Shown: in pieces, positions 7,552-64,000 of the stretch
How positions within the stretch are numbered: the stretch's first letter is position 1
How the letters are laid out: every line of letters begins with the position of its first letter
Source: a phage
Sequence record: PZ347661.1
Reading direction: 5' to 3' (one strand)
Length of the DNA stretch: 64,000 nt
Notes under the pieces: model-generated
Told to the model about the DNA's origin: nothing
What the model saw: only the letters and a program-made list of their open reading frames with translations
Databases searched by the model: none
Program-made: the position numbers and the translations under genes

Positions 7552-7858
7552 CCCTGAAGTAATTCATAGTAAAACCGGTAAGGCTGTCCCGCTTAGTGAG
7601 ATTGCAGTAACTGGTGATATTGCTGCTTGTCCAGCTAACATCGCTTCTCTATGTATGTGCATTGCTGCATTAGCAGAAGAACGTAAATTATGGCTGGAAC
7701 CAAGCAAGGAGATGGTACTGGCTGGTATGTCTGAACTGAATGCTCTTCTGAAAGAAATGTATGACGAGAATGGGCAATTAGTTGAACCTACTGATGACCA
7801 AATTTCAGACACTGTAGTATTTGTACTACAAGCAATGGCGGAGAAACGAAATGGCTAA
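7544..7858 (+). CDS. hypothetical protein
   Basis: ORF with ATG at 7544 overlapping upstream stop. Confidence 0.35.
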   Translation: MINPEVIHSKTGKAVPLSEIAVTGDIAACPANIASLCMCIAALAEERKLWLEPSKEMVLAGMSELNALLKEMYDENGQLVEPTDDQISDTVVFVLQAMAEKRNG

Positions 7859-8045
7859 CGCTACAGTAAAAAACAAAAAACAATTCTCCATCACTATTGA
7901 TGGTTTATCTGAAGAAGATTTACTAATTCTGGCTAGTTTTATGCAAAACAGTCCTTTTGGTTACAGTCCTCATGAGGAACCGGAAAAAGAACGGGAATTA
8001 CGTAAAGTAATCTTTGAAGCCTGTAAATCGGCATTAGATTCTTAA
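7851..8045 (+). CDS. hypothetical protein
   Basis: ATG at 7851 overlapping upstream stop; 64 aa. Confidence 0.3.
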   Translation: MANATVKNKKQFSITIDGLSEEDLLILASFMQNSPFGYSPHEEPEKERELRKVIFEACKSALDS

Positions 8046-8088
8046 TAGTCATAACCAAGAAGCAACATTTAATCTGGAGAGTAAATAA

Positions 8089-10653
8089 ATGTTAGTTGCA
8101 GATACTAATGAAGTAGCTACCTCAGCGACACTGGGTGGCAAAGAAACAATTGCCTTTGGCATCTCTGATGACCCGGCATTCTTCCATGTATTAAGTACTT
8201 CTCTGTATAACAATCCTACTCTGGCAGTAGTCCGTGAGACTATCTGTAACAGTTGGGATGCTCATATTGAAGCAGGTAAGACTAATACTCCTATTCGTAT
8301 CACCATTGATACAGACAACTTTATTACCTTCCGTGACTACGGTAACGGTATCCCAGATGAACTCATTGGTTCCATTTATGGTGTCTATGGTGCATCTACT
8401 AAGAAAGCCAACAGTAGTGTTACTGGTGGCTTTGGTCTGGGATGTAAATCCCCATTCGCTTATACGGATAGCTTCCAGGTTACTTCATGGAACCAGGGAA
8501 AGATGTCGGTATACAACGTAGCTAAGGCTGCGATTGAGAATGATGGTAAGCCAGGTATTGTTCCTATTGTTACTGGTATTCCTACTGAGGAATCTGGTCT
8601 GGAAGTTAAATTCCAGTTAGGCAAACATGATTTAAATACCTTTATTCATTACATCAAATCAATCGTGTTTAACGGTGAGATTAAAGCTGAGCTAAGTACC
8701 ACTAAACTCGTTAAAACAGAAGAGGGCATTAGTATTCAGCAAGGTGACTACACTCTACTGAATACATTGGGTATGTCATTTGAACCCGGTTCGTATGATA
8801 TGTCTGATAGCTGGTATCAGGGTTATATGGGTAACAGTAACATTTTCGTTCGTTACGGCAACGTAATGTACCCAATTGTATCCAGTCCTGCTAGTGAAGA
8901 AGCTGTAGGTCTTATTCTCAACTTTATGAATATCATTGGTGCTTCTAATTTAGTAGTTCAAGCTGCACCAGATACTCTGGCTATTGCTCCTAGTCGAGAA
9001 ACTCTGTCTAACCAGAAGTTAACCGACGATGGTATTACTACTCTATGTGTAGATTTAGTAGACCGTATGGAGAAAGAGATTAAGGCTAAAATTCCTGAAG
9101 CTATTAAGCAGGTTGAAGAATTCGCCTCTAAATCCTCTACTCGCTTTTGGGAATATCCTTCTTTCCTGTCTGCTGTTACAAACCCAATTGTTCAACGTTA
9201 TATGTCTTCTAGTTTGTGGGCTAAGCAACGTAAGCATCACATCAAGCACTGGCGTAACCTATCCAATAAAGCATTACTAGCTCGTCCTGAATATGCAGGT
9301 CTTAAGAAGCTGTATGGTAAAGCTATACGTGCTCTTAAGCATACGCGTACAGACAGCACCTATTTATTCCAGGATTTAGTATACCGTCACCTACACTTAC
9401 CCCAACTTGCTGCTCTAAAGGCTACTGGTATTAAGTGGTCTGGTTACATAGTGAACCAGGGTAGCTGTGTTGACTTAGTAAAAGGTAAGCTTACTGATTA
9501 CTTTAAGATGACTCATCTTAGTCATTTAGGTATCGGCATATTCACTACCAAGAACGTTGTAGTTACCCGACGTTTATCTGATTGTGCAGACTCTTTCTCA
9601 TACTTCCCTGAGTACAACCGAGGTGACTTGGAGCGTACAGCTTTTGTTCATGTCGTTGGTCCTAAGAAGGGTGCAGCAGAGGAAGCTGTAGCTAAGTTTA
9701 CTGTTATGGGTTATCGGGTAATTGACCTTACTCAATATAATGAGTGGGACAAACCAACTAACTTCCGTAGAGAACAAGCTAAGATGGCTGCTGAAAAACG
9801 GGCTAAGACAATAGCTGCCAATAAAACCAAAGCAGGAGGTAAAACCAATGCTCTGATTTCATTGAATGCAGTTCTTGATACTACCCGGGTACGGAATAAA
9901 AATGGTGATTGGGAACCCAAGCCCTATATCCAGAAGGAATTTGCTGACCCAAGTCGCCATGAGAAGTACGGTTTCGTTGAAGTGGAGCAACCTAAGTACT
10001 ACGTACTAGCCAATCAGGTTGGTTCAGGTAGCCCAGTAACAGCCAGTATTGGAACCATGTGGAAATGGTATGAGTTGTCCGATGAGATGAAAGCAGAGAC
10101 TGTTGTCTGCCGTAATCAAATCGAAGCTAACAAGGCCAAGCGACGTGGTGCTATCCACATTGATGATGTTCGCTTTATGGAACTGATGCCCGTAATTACT
10201 AGTAAAGGCTTCAAGAAGTATGTTACTGAACATCGCATCGGTATTCTGGAATACGTAGGACTGGATGACAGGGAATACTGGGAAATTCTAGACATACTGG
10301 GTCTAACCTTCAAACCATTACAGAATCTGATTTTTAAACCAGAGTATGAGTGGGCATATGACTTTCTACGGAATCGACCACATGACAACAAAGAAAAACT
10401 TGTTGAAATGGGTTGTATTAAGTCAGTGAGTGACTTAGAACCATATACAAAACTGGTTAATCCCCGTAATCATAAGTACTTTAAAATACTTAATGATTAC
10501 AAAGAATTATTCAGTTATAGCTGGGCTAAAAATGACATCCTACAGACGCTGGACTTAGGTAGTTTGGTCAAACACCTTAAGAAGAATCCAGAGGATATTC
10601 CTGGGTTTAAGTCCCTCTACCGTAATCGTCTAAATAAACTGAAAGGTAACTAA
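8089..10653 (+). CDS. rIIA: rIIA-like protein (GHKL-type ATPase N-domain)
   Basis: N-terminal Bergerat-fold motifs ETICNSWDA, RDYGNGIP and GGFGLGCKSPF; 854 aa; followed by rIIB-sized partner. Confidence 0.6.
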   Translation: MLVADTNEVATSATLGGKETIAFGISDDPAFFHVLSTSLYNNPTLAVVRETICNSWDAHIEAGKTNTPIRITIDTDNFITFRDYGNGIPDELIGSIYGVYGASTKKANSSVTGGFGLGCKSPFAYTDSFQVTSWNQGKMSVYNVAKAAIENDGKPGIVPIVTGIPTEESGLEVKFQLGKHDLNTFIHYIKSIVFNGEIKAELSTTKLVKTEEGISIQQGDYTLLNTLGMSFEPGSYDMSDSWYQGYMGNSNIFVRYGNVMYPIVSSPASEEAVGLILNFMNIIGASNLVVQAAPDTLAIAPSRETLSNQKLTDDGITTLCVDLVDRMEKEIKAKIPEAIKQVEEFASKSSTRFWEYPSFLSAVTNPIVQRYMSSSLWAKQRKHHIKHWRNLSNKALLARPEYAGLKKLYGKAIRALKHTRTDSTYLFQDLVYRHLHLPQLAALKATGIKWSGYIVNQGSCVDLVKGKLTDYFKMTHLSHLGIGIFTTKNVVVTRRLSDCADSFSYFPEYNRGDLERTAFVHVVGPKKGAAEEAVAKFTVMGYRVIDLTQYNEWDKPTNFRREQAKMAAEKRAKTIAANKTKAGGKTNALISLNAVLDTTRVRNKNGDWEPKPYIQKEFADPSRHEKYGFVEVEQPKYYVLANQVGSGSPVTASIGTMWKWYELSDEMKAETVVCRNQIEANKAKRRGAIHIDDVRFMELMPVITSKGFKKYVTEHRIGILEYVGLDDREYWEILDILGLTFKPLQNLIFKPEYEWAYDFLRNRPHDNKEKLVEMGCIKSVSDLEPYTKLVNPRNHKYFKILNDYKELFSYSWAKNDILQTLDLGSLVKHLKKNPEDIPGFKSLYRNRLNKLKGN

Positions 10654-39617: not shown

Positions 39618-39634
39618 TATTAGTATGTAAGATT

Positions 39635-58960: not shown

Positions 58961-60550
58961 TCACACAATATATGAACGTAGTGGGTTAACACTATCTTCT
59001 TCTTCGTCATCCCACATTGGGTCGCCTTTGTTATCCACCATAGTCATACCTGCTTGTGGTTTCCAAGGATTGAGATAACCCAGCATGGAGATAGTATCAA
59101 TACAGTCATCCTTGCCTTTAATTCCATTAATGGTAGCTAGTTTAATCTGGCCCATGAACAGACCCATAATAGTTGAATCTCTCAACTCTTCCGGGAAGTA
59201 CATTTTACCAGCCTTGAACCATGGAACTACCAGGTTAAAGCGTGACAGCTTAGAGGTTACAGGACGTATGCCTGGCTTACCACCCTCAGAGGATGCAAAG
59301 TTAAAGAAGACATTACGGTTAATCATTTCTTTCTGAAGGAGTGAGATGAATCCATTCTGCTGTCCTGTGATTTCGACCCCAACGTTTTGCGGTTGGTATT
59401 CCTGAACCAGACGGAACAGGTCGTCAAAGTTTTTATCCATAAGCTGACGATTAGCCACACCATCAACCCAGAACCAATCTCCATTAGAACTATAAGCCCA
59501 AACTGATATGACACTGTAGTCACTGGTCTGTTTCTCCGATGTAGCAAAGTCGGTTGTAATATAATAGTTGTAGCAAGACTTCATCCTTAACAGCTGCTGT
59601 CTGCTATACCATCTTATTTCACTATCCTGAACCAGTCTCTCATCCTCAGAACTAATACGAAGCATTAGTTCCTGGTAGAAGCCAGCCAACTTACCAGTCT
59701 TAACTGCCATGTCATATTGGGCTTTGATGTAGTCATAAGAGAAACGGTCATCCCATGCACCCTGAAATTCTTCTCTGCTACAAGGGAACTTCTCACACAC
59801 AGGCCATACGTTGACATCCCATGCACCAGACTCAACAGCTTCAATGATAATGTCTTCCTTATTAAAGGGAGTACCATTGAAGATTACTTTACGACGAGTA
59901 GGGTCAAGAGCATGGTTCACACCTTTATAGACAGTATCTTTAATAGCTTCCATACTCGTCTTGGAGTTAGCATCACCATCACTAATCAAGTCATCCAGTA
60001 CACAGAGTGTTGGACGTTTACCATATATCTTTGTACCACGAAGACCTGTCTTAGCACCAAACAGCTTAACACCAAGTCGATGTCCTTCTACATTACGAAA
60101 CTCTAATAGGTTATCCGTAAAGGTAGCTTCAGGTATCCATTGCTGGAGGAACTCACTATTCTTGTAACGGAACTCAATGTTCTTACGTGCAGACTTAGCA
60201 CCGTTATCCATTGAGTCAGATACGTAAATCATTCCTTCTACTTTACCCAGGCTAGGTAAGTGACCAAACACTGCCAGGAACAAAGTAAAGTATTCCATGA
60301 ACACAGCAGTCTTGCCTGCACCACGGAAGCACAGGTTAACCACATACTGGTTCGGGCTAATCATCTTATCCAGCATCTTCAAGTGAACTGGAGGTGTTTT
60401 GTTGGATTCACCCTCTTTGCCATTAACCAACTTAATAAAGTTGGCAAAGGTAAGAGCAAACTGACTAGGAACATAGTTAGAAGAATTAAGGTGGGAGTAA
60501 TCCACCTGGTCTAGCCATTCATCCAGTTCCTGTTTAATTAACTCAGACAT
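58961..60550 (-). CDS. terminase large subunit
   Basis: Walker A CFRGAGKT, Walker B LCVLDD, nuclease-domain motifs ITTDFATS and DDCIDT; ATG 60550 overlaps upstream stop. Confidence 0.8.
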   Translation of the reverse strand: MSELIKQELDEWLDQVDYSHLNSSNYVPSQFALTFANFIKLVNGKEGESNKTPPVHLKMLDKMISPNQYVVNLCFRGAGKTAVFMEYFTLFLAVFGHLPSLGKVEGMIYVSDSMDNGAKSARKNIEFRYKNSEFLQQWIPEATFTDNLLEFRNVEGHRLGVKLFGAKTGLRGTKIYGKRPTLCVLDDLISDGDANSKTSMEAIKDTVYKGVNHALDPTRRKVIFNGTPFNKEDIIIEAVESGAWDVNVWPVCEKFPCSREEFQGAWDDRFSYDYIKAQYDMAVKTGKLAGFYQELMLRISSEDERLVQDSEIRWYSRQQLLRMKSCYNYYITTDFATSEKQTSDYSVISVWAYSSNGDWFWVDGVANRQLMDKNFDDLFRLVQEYQPQNVGVEITGQQNGFISLLQKEMINRNVFFNFASSEGGKPGIRPVTSKLSRFNLVVPWFKAGKMYFPEELRDSTIMGLFMGQIKLATINGIKGKDDCIDTISMLGYLNPWKPQAGMTMVDNKGDPMWDDEEEDSVNPLRSYIV

Positions 60551-61232
60551 CTGTAATGTCCTCATCTGCACGTACTAGTTTAGAACCAGCAACCTCTTTG
60601 GTAGGTACACCACTATTGATTGCATTAATTTGCTGCTCAGCCAATGCAGCGAGTGTTGCCTTGAGGTCGGTTAATCCAGAGTTCTCTCTCAAGTCCAGAT
60701 TGATATTTGTTACCTGGTCCTTTGGTTTAGCTAAGTGAGTAAGGATAGAGTTAGCTGCATCACATCTTACCTTCTCGCTTGCTGCCGAAGTCATCAGTTC
60801 AACCTGAACATTGATTGCCTTCTGATAGTTGTCCTGGTTCACAATCCACACTGGAACCAAACTTTGTTCCATGATGAGGTTAACTAACTTACCTCTGTGG
60901 TAAGCAGATACATAAGCACTAATATCTTTCTCACTGGTTCCTCGTGCAACAAGTTCTGCTTGTCGGTTAGGGAATGTTTTAAAGTAGGCTTCCTTATTTG
61001 AGTAACCCATATGTTTGTAAGTCACATACTGAACTGCATTCATGTAGTCCTGTGTCTTAAACTTACCTTCCTTCATTACACCAGAGTAGGAGATAAAGTT
61101 TTCACGAAAGGACTCAGCAACCAGTTGGTCTTGGGTTATGTTGTTAATCGTGTCTACCAATTCCTGGGTAACACTGTTTTTGAAGTTAGCAGGTAAGGCA
61201 TTAATAATCTGCTGCTTAGTTAGTTCACTCAT
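60543..61232 (-). CDS. terminase small subunit-like protein (putative)
   Basis: 229-aa ORF immediately upstream of and overlapping the large terminase; first gene of the late strand block. Confidence 0.4.
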   Translation of the reverse strand: MSELTKQQIINALPANFKNSVTQELVDTINNITQDQLVAESFRENFISYSGVMKEGKFKTQDYMNAVQYVTYKHMGYSNKEAYFKTFPNRQAELVARGTSEKDISAYVSAYHRGKLVNLIMEQSLVPVWIVNQDNYQKAINVQVELMTSAASEKVRCDAANSILTHLAKPKDQVTNINLDLRENSGLTDLKATLAALAEQQINAINSGVPTKEVAGSKLVRADEDITDV

Positions 61233-61403
61233 ACTTATCTCGCTACAAAGTTATTTCTATTAAAGAAGATTTTTTTCTTGGGGTGAGTTACCCCTTGAAG
61301 AAACGATACCATACAGTTACACTTTAGTCATGATATAGAAAAAGTTCATGATACTAAATAGTATGTAATGTTCCGATGACCCTATTCCCAAAAGGAGTAA
61401 CCT

Positions 61404-61694
61404 TTGAGAATCTATATGAAAGTCTCAGACTCTAAAGATGAATACAAGGAGCTAGACCACACTAAGGCTGGTTTTCTTTCAGGTGATGTCATTATTACCC
61501 ATAATGAAGATACCTACCATGAATTAGCTGGGATGATGCTTTTAGAGAATCGTCCGGGCATTAAAATCTTAGAACCAAGAGAAACTTACTCTTTAGAAAA
61601 ACGCCCTTCAGCTCTTGTGTTCTTCACAAAATTACCTCATAGTGTCTCCGTCAGGCGAAGCAAAGACAGTGTTCGGATGACGGTGACGATGTGA
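61404..61694 (+). CDS. small protein, paralog family member A
   Basis: TTG start after AAGGAG; motif VIITHNEDTYHELAGMMLLENRPGIKILEP shared with neighbours. Confidence 0.4.
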   Translation: MRIYMKVSDSKDEYKELDHTKAGFLSGDVIITHNEDTYHELAGMMLLENRPGIKILEPRETYSLEKRPSALVFFTKLPHSVSVRRSKDSVRMTVTM

Positions 61695-61894
61695 TTAGTC
61701 ATGCCGCCTAGTAGACAGTGGCGGTACTCGTAAAGAGTTAATAACTTCTACAGTCAGGGTTGCCCGGCTCCTTTCCTACCTAGTAGGCTAACGATACACA
61801 TGTATCTAGGGTGATGAACTGACCCGTGATTGAAAACGGTAAGGGGTAGAGTCGAGAGGCTCTACCCCATTTCTTTTTCAGGAGGTATGCAACT

Positions 61895-62290
61895 ATGAGC
61901 ATCTACGCTTTTGATATTGATATTACCGGTGTACTTCGTAAGCAGGAACCCTACTACCTTGGGGAACCAGAGATGGTTAGTAAGTTCTTGTCTAAACATG
62001 TAGTCTTCCTACCAGACTGTGAAGAATCTCATGAGATAGTTGGTTCATTTTTCCTAAGTAACCTACAAATAAATACACGTATACTTACTGAACCAGTTGT
62101 GTATGACCTTACTGAGTATGCAGACTTCGAAACATTCTTCCCAGGAGTCAGATTCTATAAAGTACCCGGCTGGGAAATGATAGCTGACCATAACGTCTTT
62201 AATAAAACACTTTCCATTTACTTCAGACCTATTCCTAAAGGAAGGAAAATCCATCATGAAATTCATAATGACCATCCCCAGTTTTGCTGA
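61895..62290 (+). CDS. small protein, paralog family member B
   Basis: Motif VVFLPDCEESHEIVGSFFLSN...RILTEP. Confidence 0.4.
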   Translation: MSIYAFDIDITGVLRKQEPYYLGEPEMVSKFLSKHVVFLPDCEESHEIVGSFFLSNLQINTRILTEPVVYDLTEYADFETFFPGVRFYKVPGWEMIADHNVFNKTLSIYFRPIPKGRKIHHEIHNDHPQFC

Positions 62291-62570
62291 AAGGGAATCT
62301 ATGTATACAACTGACTTCACTTTAGAAGAAGTCATGAACAGCAACCCCCAGCAAGTAATCCTGGTTCCTACTTTAGAGGACTACCATGAGGTAAGGGGTC
62401 AACTCTTCTTAGCAGGTAATGACCGTAAGGTTGTATGTATTGTTCCTCCATCTGTCTATACCAACTTTAACTCCGGGGAACCTATCCCATACATGATGGT
62501 GTCTGATGATTACCAATGGGATTGTCGCTATGAGGATGGTGAATCCCGTTACTACTATGTAAGGAAGTAA
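62256..62570 (+). CDS. small protein, paralog family member C
   Basis: Motif VILVPTLEDYHEVRGQLFLAGNDRKVVCIVPP; start overlaps upstream gene. Confidence 0.4.
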   Translation: MKFIMTIPSFAERESMYTTDFTLEEVMNSNPQQVILVPTLEDYHEVRGQLFLAGNDRKVVCIVPPSVYTNFNSGEPIPYMMVSDDYQWDCRYEDGESRYYYVRK

Positions 62571-62573
62571 GGT

Positions 62574-62891
62574 ATGCGCTTCTATGGTTTGAGTTATCGT
62601 AGTACCAGTCCCCTTAATCTGGGGGTAGGTAAATCTCACTGGATTAGAATAAGCACGCCTATGACCATGTACTACGAACAATGCGAAAAAGCAGATGAGT
62701 TCATCGGAACTTGTCTCTTGTTGGGTGTACCCATTACCTTTATTAAAATAGACACTTCCATTGAAGTTCCAGAGAATGTAGTTGTGTATATCTATTCCTC
62801 CAGTGAACCTATGGTAGTTACTACCCTTACAGGTAGACTTATTACCCTCTATCCTTCTACCTCATATTTATCTAGCGACGAGAGCTATTAA
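62574..62891 (+). CDS. small protein, possible divergent paralog D
   Basis: Weaker resemblance (EFIGTCLLLG...IEVPE); 105 aa. Confidence 0.35.
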   Translation: MRFYGLSYRSTSPLNLGVGKSHWIRISTPMTMYYEQCEKADEFIGTCLLLGVPITFIKIDTSIEVPENVVVYIYSSSEPMVVTTLTGRLITLYPSTSYLSSDESY

Positions 62892-63175
62892 TGGTTATCA
62901 GTAAAATTTATTCAGAGCTACCATGGGATGAATACACCCACCATAAAAAAGTAGCTAACCTAGATGCTGATGTACTTATCCTGGTTCCAGACGAGCAGTC
63001 CTTGCATGAACTACAGGGATTGCTTTTCTTATACAATAAGAAAGCAGAAGTACATCTACTTGAACCAGGAACACCTATGTCCTGGCAGGGTAGCTTTAGT
63101 CCTTGGCATCTTAATACAGACAAGTACATTCTATCCTTCGAGGACAACACCCCAATCTATAAGGAAAGGTACTGA
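62891..63175 (+). CDS. small protein, paralog family member E
   Basis: Motif VLILVPDEQSLHELQGLLFLYNKKAEVHLLEP. Confidence 0.4.
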   Translation: MVISKIYSELPWDEYTHHKKVANLDADVLILVPDEQSLHELQGLLFLYNKKAEVHLLEPGTPMSWQGSFSPWHLNTDKYILSFEDNTPIYKERY

Positions 63176-63178
63176 AGT

Positions 63179-63583
63179 ATGAACGTTAAACTCTTAGGGA
63201 TGAAAGGTACAGACTTACTGCACTATTCCTCTGAACCAGAGAAAGCCATCATCCATGCTATGTCCTATGGGGATTCTACGCTAATAATGGAACCAGGGGA
63301 GTTAGCAGATTTTGCACAGGGGCATAGACTTCTCACTAACAGCAAAGCAAAGATAGTTACCCTCAATGAAGGAGATACTTACCTTGCACCAGAAGGGGAT
63401 TACTTCCATATCTTCCTACCGGTAACAGTAAAAACCAGTATGGTAAGAGAAGGTAACTCTTTCAGGTCTATAAGAATACTTGAGTCTAGAAAGATATTTC
63501 CTTGGGATATTAATTTGTCACAACCTTGGGACGTAAACACAGGTGATTATAGTATGCCCTTTGGTATCACAGATAGCTACTAA
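63179..63583 (+). CDS. small protein, possible divergent paralog F
   Basis: 134 aa; weak similarity (LIMEPGELADFAQGHRLL...KIVTLNEG). Confidence 0.35.
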   Translation: MNVKLLGMKGTDLLHYSSEPEKAIIHAMSYGDSTLIMEPGELADFAQGHRLLTNSKAKIVTLNEGDTYLAPEGDYFHIFLPVTVKTSMVREGNSFRSIRILESRKIFPWDINLSQPWDVNTGDYSMPFGITDSY

Positions 63584-64000
63584 CCACTTCCTCCTATTTA
63601 ACTGCTTATAAGGATTAATATGTGGTATATAACAGTAAAAGGCTTACTTGAACCAGTGATAGTACATAGCCTAGCTTTCGTAGAAGTAGGTGGACCATTG
63701 CTTGTAAAGGGTAAGCTATACGAGGTTTTAGGTATTAAACGCTACGATGAGTAGGGGATAGATAGTTATCCCCTATAGTATTTATAAATAAGGTAGAACC
63801 AGTGACAAGATTACAATACCTATGAATCCTACAATGCAAGCACAGGCAATGAAGTGAAGCCAATTCTCAGGGTCTGTAGGATTGTAGTTACCCCATCCAT
63901 CTTTCATGTTAGTACCTCAAAGTTATCTGCTTATAGAGATAGTGCCTATAATATTTTTGCATGTCAAAATTGTGATAGCTATGTACAGCCATAGTGGTGT

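Follow-up and report, generated by a model that had tools for sequence, protein, structure and literature searches.

A family of paralogous genes at the right genome end

We analysed a window of 64,000 nucleotides of phage DNA (PZ347661.1), which is from a Gamaleyavirus, an N4-like member of the Schitoviridae. Six consecutive plus-strand open reading frames (ORFs A to F, 61404–63583) were confirmed where an earlier note had placed a tandem array of small paralogous proteins. They are preceded by a divergent control region, interrupted by a structured RNA element and followed by a seventh gene, G, and a terminator-like hairpin:

61233–61403, no strand assigned: divergent control region, between the small-terminase gene (60543–61232, minus strand) and A
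61404–61694, plus strand: gene A, 96 aa, TTG start; N4 gp70 orthologue, phrog_7213
61695–61894, plus strand: structured RNA element, the 200-nt 'gap' between A and B, with hairpins, a three-way junction and an intrinsic terminator
61895–62290, plus strand: gene B, 131 aa; N4 gp71 orthologue, phrog_9160
62256–62570, plus strand: gene C, 104 aa; phrog_11661, the family's most canonical representative
62574–62891, plus strand: gene D, 105 aa; phrog_12099, a divergent member with DE in place of HE
62891–63175, plus strand: gene E, 94 aa; phrog_16338, the family hub in sequence comparisons
63179–63583, plus strand: gene F, 134 aa; a chimera of two paralogue types
63620–63754, plus strand: gene G, 44 aa; N4 gp72 orthologue, phrog_19797, the conserved last gene of the locus
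63751–63776, plus strand: terminator-like hairpin, which ends the rightward transcription unit shortly ahead of the terminal-repeat region

The window ORFs matched their own PHROGs at 1e-40 to 1e-66. Reciprocal similarity and a shared slot after gp69, reading rightward at the right end, identify the orthologues of N4 gp70, gp71 and gp72, with 32% identity (E 7e-22) between A and gp70 and 71% identity (E 6e-21) between G and gp72; G lies outside the paralogue family. The TTG start of A is backed by the spacing of its Shine–Dalgarno sequence (AAGGAG, 6 nt 5′ of the TTG) and by the N4 N-terminus MRLF. The first 35 nt of C overlap the end of B. In F, residues 1–100 are of F-type (phrog_12606) and residues 97–133 correspond to the C-terminal part of an E-type paralogue, a chimera that probably arose by deletion between adjacent cassettes; the F stretch could not be aligned to PE007, the closest relative.

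The module has a recurring frame of A, the RNA, B, a variable number of paralogues (here C, D, E and the chimeric F), G and a terminator, and the family fills the same slot in KP8, in distant metagenomic relatives and in Achromobacter phage JWDelta. Detectable family copies varied from one to six among related phages and reached six or more in some genera, with two in N4 and six in the present phage. The local expansion of one small-protein family that had been proposed is thereby borne out, and its extent differs between relatives.

All six ORFs belong to one superfamily

The tandem ORFs carry the motif strings that had been quoted for them, and their similarity exceeds chance in both BLASTP and profile–profile comparison. 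BLASTP within the set linked C to E (5.5e-6), B to C (2e-4) and B to E (2e-3), and PHROG cross-matches connected A, C, E, B and the tail of F. Profile–profile comparison of orthologue sets from 11 phages gave matches that were all in register on the motif (C–E 1.5e-8, A–E 8e-7, B–C 1.9e-4 and B–E 9e-4), while none of about 70 control pairs fell below P = 0.019. A, B, C and E are thus clearly related (P 1e-8 to 1e-3 versus negative controls of at least 0.016), and A, C and E merged into one cluster when more diverse sequences were used (BLAST single linkage at 1e-6).

Two neighbours had been described as weaker matches. D and F are indeed divergent, yet they are full members: homology between the two extends over 87 columns (P 7.7e-7), and intermediates tie them to the rest through D–I (2.2e-6), ACE–F (9.5e-5) and B–D (3.1e-4), in a test of 153 pairs for which the negative controls, alternative-frame ORFs, gave P of at least 0.016. 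These links make all six ORFs, and not only four, members of one superfamily as judged by sequence comparison, every one of them connected at values that the controls (at least 0.016) did not reach. Cassette H, which is absent from the window, was rejected as a seventh type (best P 0.07).

Databases keep the corresponding PHROG families separate and without function; on our comparisons six of these separate 'unknown' families unite as one superfamily with, by prediction, one fold. An exhaustive profile search of 1.84 billion proteins returned only 21 clusters at 50% identity, marking a narrow family, and the matches from three word-index protein searches were for the most part close orthologues of B and E. 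By these searches the family is restricted to N4-like phages.

The shared motif itself needs qualification. Its strings are present in the array, but across the wider family it is a glycine, and to a lesser extent a proline, that is near-invariant; the H and E of 'HE' are substituted in many members, and no polar residue was found to be invariant across the family. That the members are small enzymes using the conserved His–Glu pair is for this reason very improbable, as catalytic residues would be expected not to vary in this way.

Predicted fold and selection

A Pfam scan of the seven ORFs gave no match at E ≤ 1, precomputed Pfam annotations were empty for all homologues, and the matching PHROG families are all annotated 'unknown function'. 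We found no solved structure related to the family, and no characterised anti-defence protein similar to it in sequence or structure. The earlier statement that this is not a described family therefore holds.

AlphaFold models were obtained for C (pLDDT 85.4, pTM 0.79) and B (pLDDT 82.6, pTM 0.79); these are predictions from shallow alignments, mostly of close orthologues. In the two models the secondary-structure elements are predicted to occur in the same order, and B appears to consist of the family fold plus a C-terminal extension. BFVD matches were to E-type proteins of PhAPEC5 and PhAPEC7 (TM 0.65–0.75) and also to a 108-aa KP8 protein, the length of which fits an F-type gene. The paralogues, most of them acidic, are predicted to be small, soluble alpha/beta proteins of a single domain, and they have no conserved catalytic residues. 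The isoelectric points of B to F are 4.5–5.6, and A (8.0) is the sole basic member of the family.

The values of dN/dS among orthologues (0.20–0.37) show purifying selection and thus mark the ORFs as real coding genes. They do not agree with the diversifying selection that had been suggested, at least gene-wide, and are better described as purifying though relaxed: the adjacent small terminase gave 0.025, so that constraint on the array genes is about ten times more relaxed. Fast divergence is accompanied by gain, loss and fusion of cassettes among related phages.

The locus lies at the last-entering genome end

In related records the locus comes after the terminase genes, at the very right end of the genome, and the right terminus lay within about 2.5 kb of the module in every phage examined. 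N4 injects its left end first and has its early promoters only there, and injection is completed only once middle-gene products have been made (PMC4496689). Gamaleyaviruses have 401-bp direct terminal repeats (PMC11927229, PMC11640937).

We searched the 64-kb window for the N4-type early hairpin promoter of the virion RNA polymerase (vRNAP), defined by the GC-rich heptamer GCTCCGC, a 5–7-bp stem and then T(A)TGGA, and found zero matches to the GCTCCGC core on either strand. The left-end loci of relatives gave two to four matches each. The first of these hairpins (P1) is downstream of the array, beside gp1, and the window ends at a point that maps about 90 nt before it.

These observations bear on the proposal that the array lies in an early, host-takeover region and encodes takeover or anti-defence factors made immediately after injection. 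The array genes do share their direction with early and middle genes, collapsed or circular assemblies place them immediately before gp1/gp2, and small, acidic, fast-evolving proteins of variable copy number are typical of anti-defence loci. Between the array and gp1, nevertheless, lie the 401-bp repeat and the physical ends of the genome, the left end that enters first holds all early promoters, the first vRNAP hairpin is beyond the array and outside the window, and the proteins have no structural likeness to any solved anti-defence protein. We consider early expression of this kind improbable and do not retain the assignment to an early region. As the locus enters last and has no early promoter, the array would instead be expressed in the middle or late phase of infection, or from replicated DNA.

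The control region upstream of A is very highly conserved, N4 included (91% mean column identity in a 10-phage alignment), and holds an invariant ACTTTAG and a hairpin, GGGGT-gagtt-ACCCC, at about 61281–61295. A sigma-70 promoter scan gave no consensus above chance, with fewer matches than in shuffles, and no promoter was identified for A or for the RNA element. Two repeated sequences considered as promoter motifs were suggestive, though neither had a general promoter-like distribution: GTATGTAA, for which four of four plus-strand copies were intergenic by a crude gene call and one lay inside an ORF, and TTAGTCAT, which occurs at 61324 and 61695.

A conserved structured RNA with a terminator precedes B

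The 200-nt interval between A and B is predicted to fold into the following elements:

61703–61708/61720–61725: helix H1
61726–61729/61735–61738: helix H2
61753–61757/61819–61823: helix H3, which with H4 closes the three-way junction
61759–61765/61809–61815: helix H4, which with H3 closes the three-way junction
61775–61779/61783–61787: hairpin H5, within the three-way junction
61793–61797/61802–61806: hairpin H6, within the three-way junction
61824–61827/61836–61839: helix H7
61843–61853/61858–61868: intrinsic terminator, with its U-run at 61870–61878
61880–61885: Shine–Dalgarno sequence of B, whose ATG is at 61895, directly 3′ of the terminator

The fold had a z score of −3.3. RNAalifold on an unfitted MAFFT alignment gave 52 pairs, 20 of them with compensatory changes. 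Plain MAFFT mis-registered the N4/KP8 group, and covariance-model alignments were used instead; in these, compensatory changes were seen in 41 of 47 pairs, a count that is biased towards the structure as the alignments were fitted to the model. Pairing was 91.5%, versus about 40% in slid controls (0/500 shuffles). Across subfamilies, the AGUAG loop, which is single-stranded, and the UUAAUAAC...UCUACAG junction sequences were kept. G.U pairs are abundant and, together with the U-run terminator, point to an RNA transcribed from the plus strand.

The element was present in at least five genera of two subfamilies, N4 included, and the phages that carry it infect Escherichia, Shigella, Klebsiella and Achromobacter. 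Each genome had one copy, invariably on the gene strand and directly upstream of the next array gene, which was B-type in all but two related loci; gene B in turn always came after the element. The distance from the terminator to the ATG of B is 17 nt here and 17–25 nt across all genera. The six weakest matches (26–35 bits), in distant schitoviruses, had no recognisable family genes nearby and are tentative. Against 4,227 Rfam families, the window, N4, KP8 and JWDelta versions gave no relevant match at E ≤ 1. The element is a previously undescribed RNA that is present in N4 itself. A mir-279 match was a chance one on the other strand (61300–61379), outside the element, and identity as a tRNA or tmRNA was rejected for want of a match.

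A role in genome-end biology, such as terminal-repeat generation, packaging, end protection or replication priming, would make the proteins DNA- or terminase-associated and the 'RNA' a structured DNA or primer element. In its favour, all phages examined have the module beside the terminase genes and no more than about 2.5 kb from the right terminus; A, the RNA, B and gp72 persist across subfamilies, and DNA hairpins are used in N4 biology. Core packaging factors would not be expected to vary so freely in copy number and cassettes or to evolve ten times faster than terminase, however; the G.U pairs and U-run speak for a plus-strand RNA, and the proteins have neither a DNA-binding signature nor a Pfam match. 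We regard such a role as unlikely.

A proposed attenuator-gated accessory module

The element combines a covarying structured domain with a terminator directly upstream of an ORF, as an attenuating leader does. No promoter has room between the terminator and B, so B and the genes after it would be expressed only by read-through, and from this requirement the RNA would gate the array. We propose, with about even confidence, that the locus is a conserved right-end accessory module of N4-like genomes in which binding paralogues are gated by an attenuator RNA. The paralogues may be non-enzymatic proteins that bind partners from the phage or from the host, possibly its defences, with a surface that has diverged from copy to copy; they may have an anti-defence or host-directed function. 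The RNA would most likely act in cis, as an attenuator or riboregulator.

The same binding proteins could instead accompany a free-standing small RNA that acts in trans or binds a protein or polymerase, its terminator merely ending the A/RNA transcript while B to G are reached by unregulated, leaky read-through. The element is compact with a strong terminator at its end, and its conserved AGUAG loop and junction sequences would suit a binding or base-pairing surface. Truncated folding found no anti-terminator conserved across genera, the partners differing between them, and the weaker matches in distant schitoviruses occur away from recognisable family genes. RNAalifold suggested a possible CUUCU/AGGAG pairing to the Shine–Dalgarno sequence of B. 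Against a free-standing RNA, in every well-supported case the terminator stands 17–25 nt before the ribosome-binding site of the next array gene, with no space for a promoter, which is the anatomy of a leader. We therefore consider the free-standing RNA a less probable though serious alternative to gating in cis. It is also conceivable that phage RNA polymerase II might ignore the terminator or obey it only partly.

A more specific form of the gating proposal, which we advance tentatively, is that the gp70–gp71 element represents a new class of phage riboregulator (a riboswitch or protein-responsive attenuator) that releases host- or defence-binding paralogues late in infection. The signal that it senses would come from the host or from the infection itself, with the basic gp70-like protein, whose gene immediately precedes the element, as a possible effector.

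Relation to known systems

The direct orthologues and family matches of the locus are N4 gp70–72 and PHROGs 7213, 9160, 11661, 12099, 16338, 12606 and 19797. N4 is a classical model of phage transcription, and its right-end genes gp70–72 have no assigned role; our literature search returned nothing on their role, on their functional genomics or on structured RNAs in N4-like phages.

The early 0.3 region of T7 and the pre-early region of T5 are anti-defence or accessory clusters at the first-entering end that are transcribed immediately. The present array resembles them in having small, fast-evolving, non-essential-looking genes near a genome end, with content that varies between close relatives. 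It differs in lying at the last-entering end without early promoters, a position that points to a middle or late accessory function, and in consisting of paralogues of a single predicted fold with no similarity to solved anti-defence proteins.

Like attenuating leaders (riboswitches, protein-binding leaders and T-box-like elements), the RNA has a multi-helix covarying domain with a three-way junction, and its intrinsic terminator immediately precedes the ribosome-binding site of the putatively regulated gene. Unlike known leaders, it has no Rfam match and no conserved anti-terminator was found, and the genes on either side of it are paralogues in a lytic phage. It is a testable candidate for a new regulatory RNA and a route to the function of the proteins that it apparently controls; if the riboregulator reading is true, a conserved and previously unseen regulatory circuit would operate in N4 and across the Schitoviridae. 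N4-like phages are used in therapy cocktails, where modules that may affect host range or counter-defence are of practical relevance, and N4, G7C-like and KP8-like phages are all cultivable.

Genome position and composition of the array

The stretch 61200-64000 matched about 59 phage records at 84-93% identity in a sequence search, all from the genus Gamaleyavirus (Schitoviridae, Enquatrovirinae), whether N4-like coliphages or Shigella phages, with PE007 the closest at 93%. In these records the aligned stretch is the extreme right genome end, directly past the large and small terminase genes. Direct terminal repeats of gamaleyavirus genomes measure 401 bp (PMC11927229, PMC11640937), which places the array in unique sequence immediately inside the right repeat. 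PhAPEC5 annotation and direct comparison identified ORFs A and B as the counterparts of N4 gp70 and gp71.

Features at the right end of the window
58961-60571, minus strand, large terminase gene
60543-61232, minus strand, small terminase gene
61404-61694, plus strand, ORF A
61695-61894, plus strand, RNA element
61895-62290, plus strand, ORF B
62256-62570, plus strand, ORF C
62574-62891, plus strand, ORF D
62891-63175, plus strand, ORF E
63179-63583, plus strand, ORF F
63620-63754, plus strand, gene G (44 aa)
63782-63907, minus strand, 41-aa ORF; GAGGT, a good Shine-Dalgarno sequence, stands 7 nt ahead of its ATG, and the C-terminal half is hydrophobic

The unit ends with the gp72-like gene G and then a terminator, and the N4 end is likewise gp72. 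G is 71% identical to N4 gp72, far above the adjacent gp70 and gp71 orthologues (about 31-32%), so it is a strongly constrained micro-protein closing the locus. The 41-aa minus-strand ORF, near the terminal-repeat region, may encode a small membrane protein.

The six ORFs form one protein superfamily by profile comparison

The six tandem ORFs described in an earlier note on this DNA were found as described, and profiles widened the family from the four clear members to all six. Within the array, pairwise BLASTP linked C-E (5.5e-6), B-C (2e-4) and B-E (2e-3); each ORF has its own PHROG of unknown function, and cross-hits connect these PHROGs. The multiple alignment and profile comparison suggested in that note used orthologues gathered from eleven phage records and grouped; the group profiles aligned in register on the motif (P values: C-E 1.5e-8, A-E 8e-7, B-C 1.9e-4, B-E 9e-4), while none of about 70 control pairs with unrelated or antisense ORF clusters fell below 0.019. 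When KP8, two metagenomic relatives and distant representatives were added, A, C and E were fused by BLAST single linkage alone, and a profile network of 153 tested pairs joined the weak members D and F (D-F 7.7e-7 over 87 columns), with further links D-I (I being a further group) at 2.2e-6, ACE-F at 9.5e-5 and B-D at 3.1e-4; negative-control pairs with alternative-frame ORFs gave at least 0.016. Taken together, the BLASTP, PHROG, profile and network similarities place all six ORFs in one superfamily. Cassette H, found in some relatives and absent from the window, was considered as a member and found to be unrelated.

That the family was not a recognised one also held, with no Pfam match for the array proteins. 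Searched exhaustively with a profile, 1.84 billion representative proteins yielded only 21 clusters, all of 54-132 aa, and those with readable context occupy the same slot in N4-like genomes. The family core reads [VI]-I-L-V-P-[DT]-x-E-x-Y-H-E-[VL]-x-G-x-L-F-L-x-N ... V-x-C-L-x-P-P-S-x-Y ... P-Y ... Y-Y-F-x-K. The motif histidine and glutamate are substituted in many members and only the glycine and, less strictly, the proline are nearly invariant, which argues against an enzyme.

Structure prediction, another check put forward earlier, gave AlphaFold models of C (pLDDT 85.4, pTM 0.79) and B (82.6, 0.79) with a common predicted element order, beta-beta-alpha-beta-alpha-beta5. Foldseek against predicted viral structures matched nothing but small, uncharacterised N4-like phage proteins, from Gamaleyavirus, Klebsiella KP8 (four proteins), Achromobacter JWAlpha, JWDelta and Axy, Pseudomonas Zuri (four), OLB145 and IME11. 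The KP8 matches agree in length with that phage's own right-end array genes, and the JWDelta right-end genes JJJA_0084 and JJJA_0087 score 9e-6 and 6.5e-5 against the family profiles.

Among gamaleyavirus orthologues dN/dS was 0.20-0.37, against 0.025 for the neighbouring small terminase, a range that indicates relaxed purifying selection rather than the diversifying selection previously proposed. B-F have acidic pI values (4.5-5.6), A a basic one (8.0). Several features suggest that these proteins are binding modules rather than enzymes, with surfaces that diverge and partners that would belong to the host (possibly its defences) or to the phage: they have no invariant polar residue, they are small and mostly acidic, purifying selection on them is relaxed, and cassettes turn over.

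In public assemblies, a 2.76-Mb contig carries an E-type protein labelled 'Enterococcus faecium' and a 168-kb contig carries a B-type one, probably through contamination by, or misassembly of, N4-like phage DNA.

A covarying RNA element precedes B

Between A and B lies a 200-nt element whose conservation exceeds that of the flanking genes and which is recognisable in N4 and KP8. RNAalifold predicts, in order:

61695-61894, plus strand, whole element: a 5' hairpin whose AGUAG loop is conserved; next a helix tolerating large insertions; then a pair of long-range helices that close a three-way junction carrying two hairpins; then one more hairpin
61843-61868, plus strand, intrinsic terminator, with its U-run

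The ATG of B, preceded by its Shine-Dalgarno sequence, follows 17 nt after the terminator and U-run. In 20 of the 52 predicted pairs both partners have changed and pairing is retained. With a covariance model of this alignment, gamaleyaviruses, N4, Kaypoctavirus phages, Moovirus Moo19 and two metagenomic relatives each gave a single copy, always lying on the gene strand immediately 5' of a B-type gene. In model-fitted alignments, from which the covariation counts derive, 91.7% of cells in this first set were paired compared with 35-45% for slid partners (the control), 27 of 47 pairs were compensatory compared with 3-9, and 0 of 500 shuffles attained the observed score; in a wider set 41 of 47 pairs were compensatory and 91.5% of cells paired, compared with about 40% when slid. 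Many pairs are G.U, which fixes the plus-strand RNA as the structured species.

The element occupies the same slot in Achromobacter phage JWDelta (Rothmandenesvirinae; 47.7 bits, E 7e-11), where compensatory changes preserve every helix, and occurred in 26 of 80 diverse schitovirus loci retrieved with the small terminase as anchor, with constant relative orientation and side. The six weakest matches (26-35 bits), in distant environmental schitoviruses, have the expected orientation and terminase side and no recognisable family genes flanking them. We regard them as tentative: the RNA may predate the protein family or reach beyond it, and partial or false matches are the other possibility. None of the versions searched against Rfam 15 (window, N4, KP8, JWDelta) had a match, ARAGORN found nothing in the element, and a literature search found no published description.

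Wherever the proteins are detectable, an A-type gene comes first, the RNA and terminator second, and further family members, most often a B-type gene, follow. The terminator-to-B spacing is 17-25 nt, in which no promoter fits, so B and later genes would depend on read-through of the element. On this ground we infer that it is most likely a cis-acting attenuator, riboswitch-like or protein-responsive, which would gate B onward; the basic A protein, encoded just upstream, is an obvious candidate regulator. A free-standing small RNA is a serious rival, as a conserved anti-terminator was sought and not found, and it is the dependence on read-through that argues for the attenuator. Anatomically the element is like known attenuator leaders, yet it is in no described family.

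The array genes themselves belong to existing, uncharacterised groupings (N4 gp70/71/72 and seven PHROGs). As far as our searches show, what is new is that six groupings probably make up one fold family confined to N4-like phages, that this family holds a conserved frame at the last-entering genome end, and that a covarying RNA leader lies inside that frame. We consider the RNA element the most interesting result, through which the function of the N4 right-end genes becomes experimentally approachable.

Timing and candidate control sequences

In N4 the left end enters first, virion-polymerase promoters are limited to that end, and injection finishes only once the middle machinery is made (PMC4496689). 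From the annotated KP8 early promoters, together with those that N4 shows, we derived an early-promoter hairpin motif in which a GCTCCGC core and a 5-7 bp stem are followed by T(A)TGGA. Every left-end locus had two to four copies of it, and neither strand of the 64-kb window had any. P1, the first hairpin copy in relatives, is downstream of the array just before gp1, and in KP8 the first copy is in the terminal repeat, past the last array gene. Placement of the array in the early region is thus not supported; given its right-end position and the lack of an early hairpin promoter, we predict that its expression must be middle or late, or else come from replicated DNA. Paralogy and an unknown family survive from the earlier interpretation; early placement and diversifying selection do not.

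Consensus scans and motif searches for an array promoter were not decisive. The divergent region 61233-61403, between the small-terminase gene and A, is conserved above coding sequence (91% mean column identity in 10 phages including N4), holds a conserved GGGGT...ACCCC hairpin and an invariant ACTTTAG, and is presumably a control region for the late terminase operon and/or A. The octamer TTAGTCAT stands upstream of A (61324-61331) and at the 5' edge of the RNA element (61695-61702), both sites being conserved; it might mark transcription starts or processing sites, and had no general promoter-like distribution in the window. GTATGTAA has four plus-strand copies (1673, 27045, 39623 and 61361), all four intergenic by a crude gene call (intergenic fraction 8.5%), although the copy at 1673 is really just inside an ORF; that at 39623 directly follows a terminator-like hairpin. 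A promoter for rightward genes may include this motif.

Cassette turnover

Comparison of copy number across related phages, also proposed earlier, showed that cassette order and number vary: N4 has only A and B, the window six, and others different sets. F is an in-frame chimera in which residues 1-100 are F-type and the final ~37 match the C-terminal third of an E-type paralogue. This stretch is not alignable to PE007, the closest relative, so F is probably the product of a deletion between adjacent cassettes, and the fusion is evidence that recombination or deletion among tandem paralogues remodels the array. The 35-nt overlap of B and C in different frames (62256-62290) is kept in relatives with a 132-aa B. 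Its variability likens the module to accessory or anti-defence clusters in other virulent phages; position, predicted timing and a probable single-fold composition set it apart from them.

The KP8 right-end array holds, at locus positions 7798-8855, a second set of small paralogues, 60-75 aa long and linked to one another at profile P 7e-7 to 2e-5. This set has no relation to the main family, and one of its members is annotated as a transmembrane protein.
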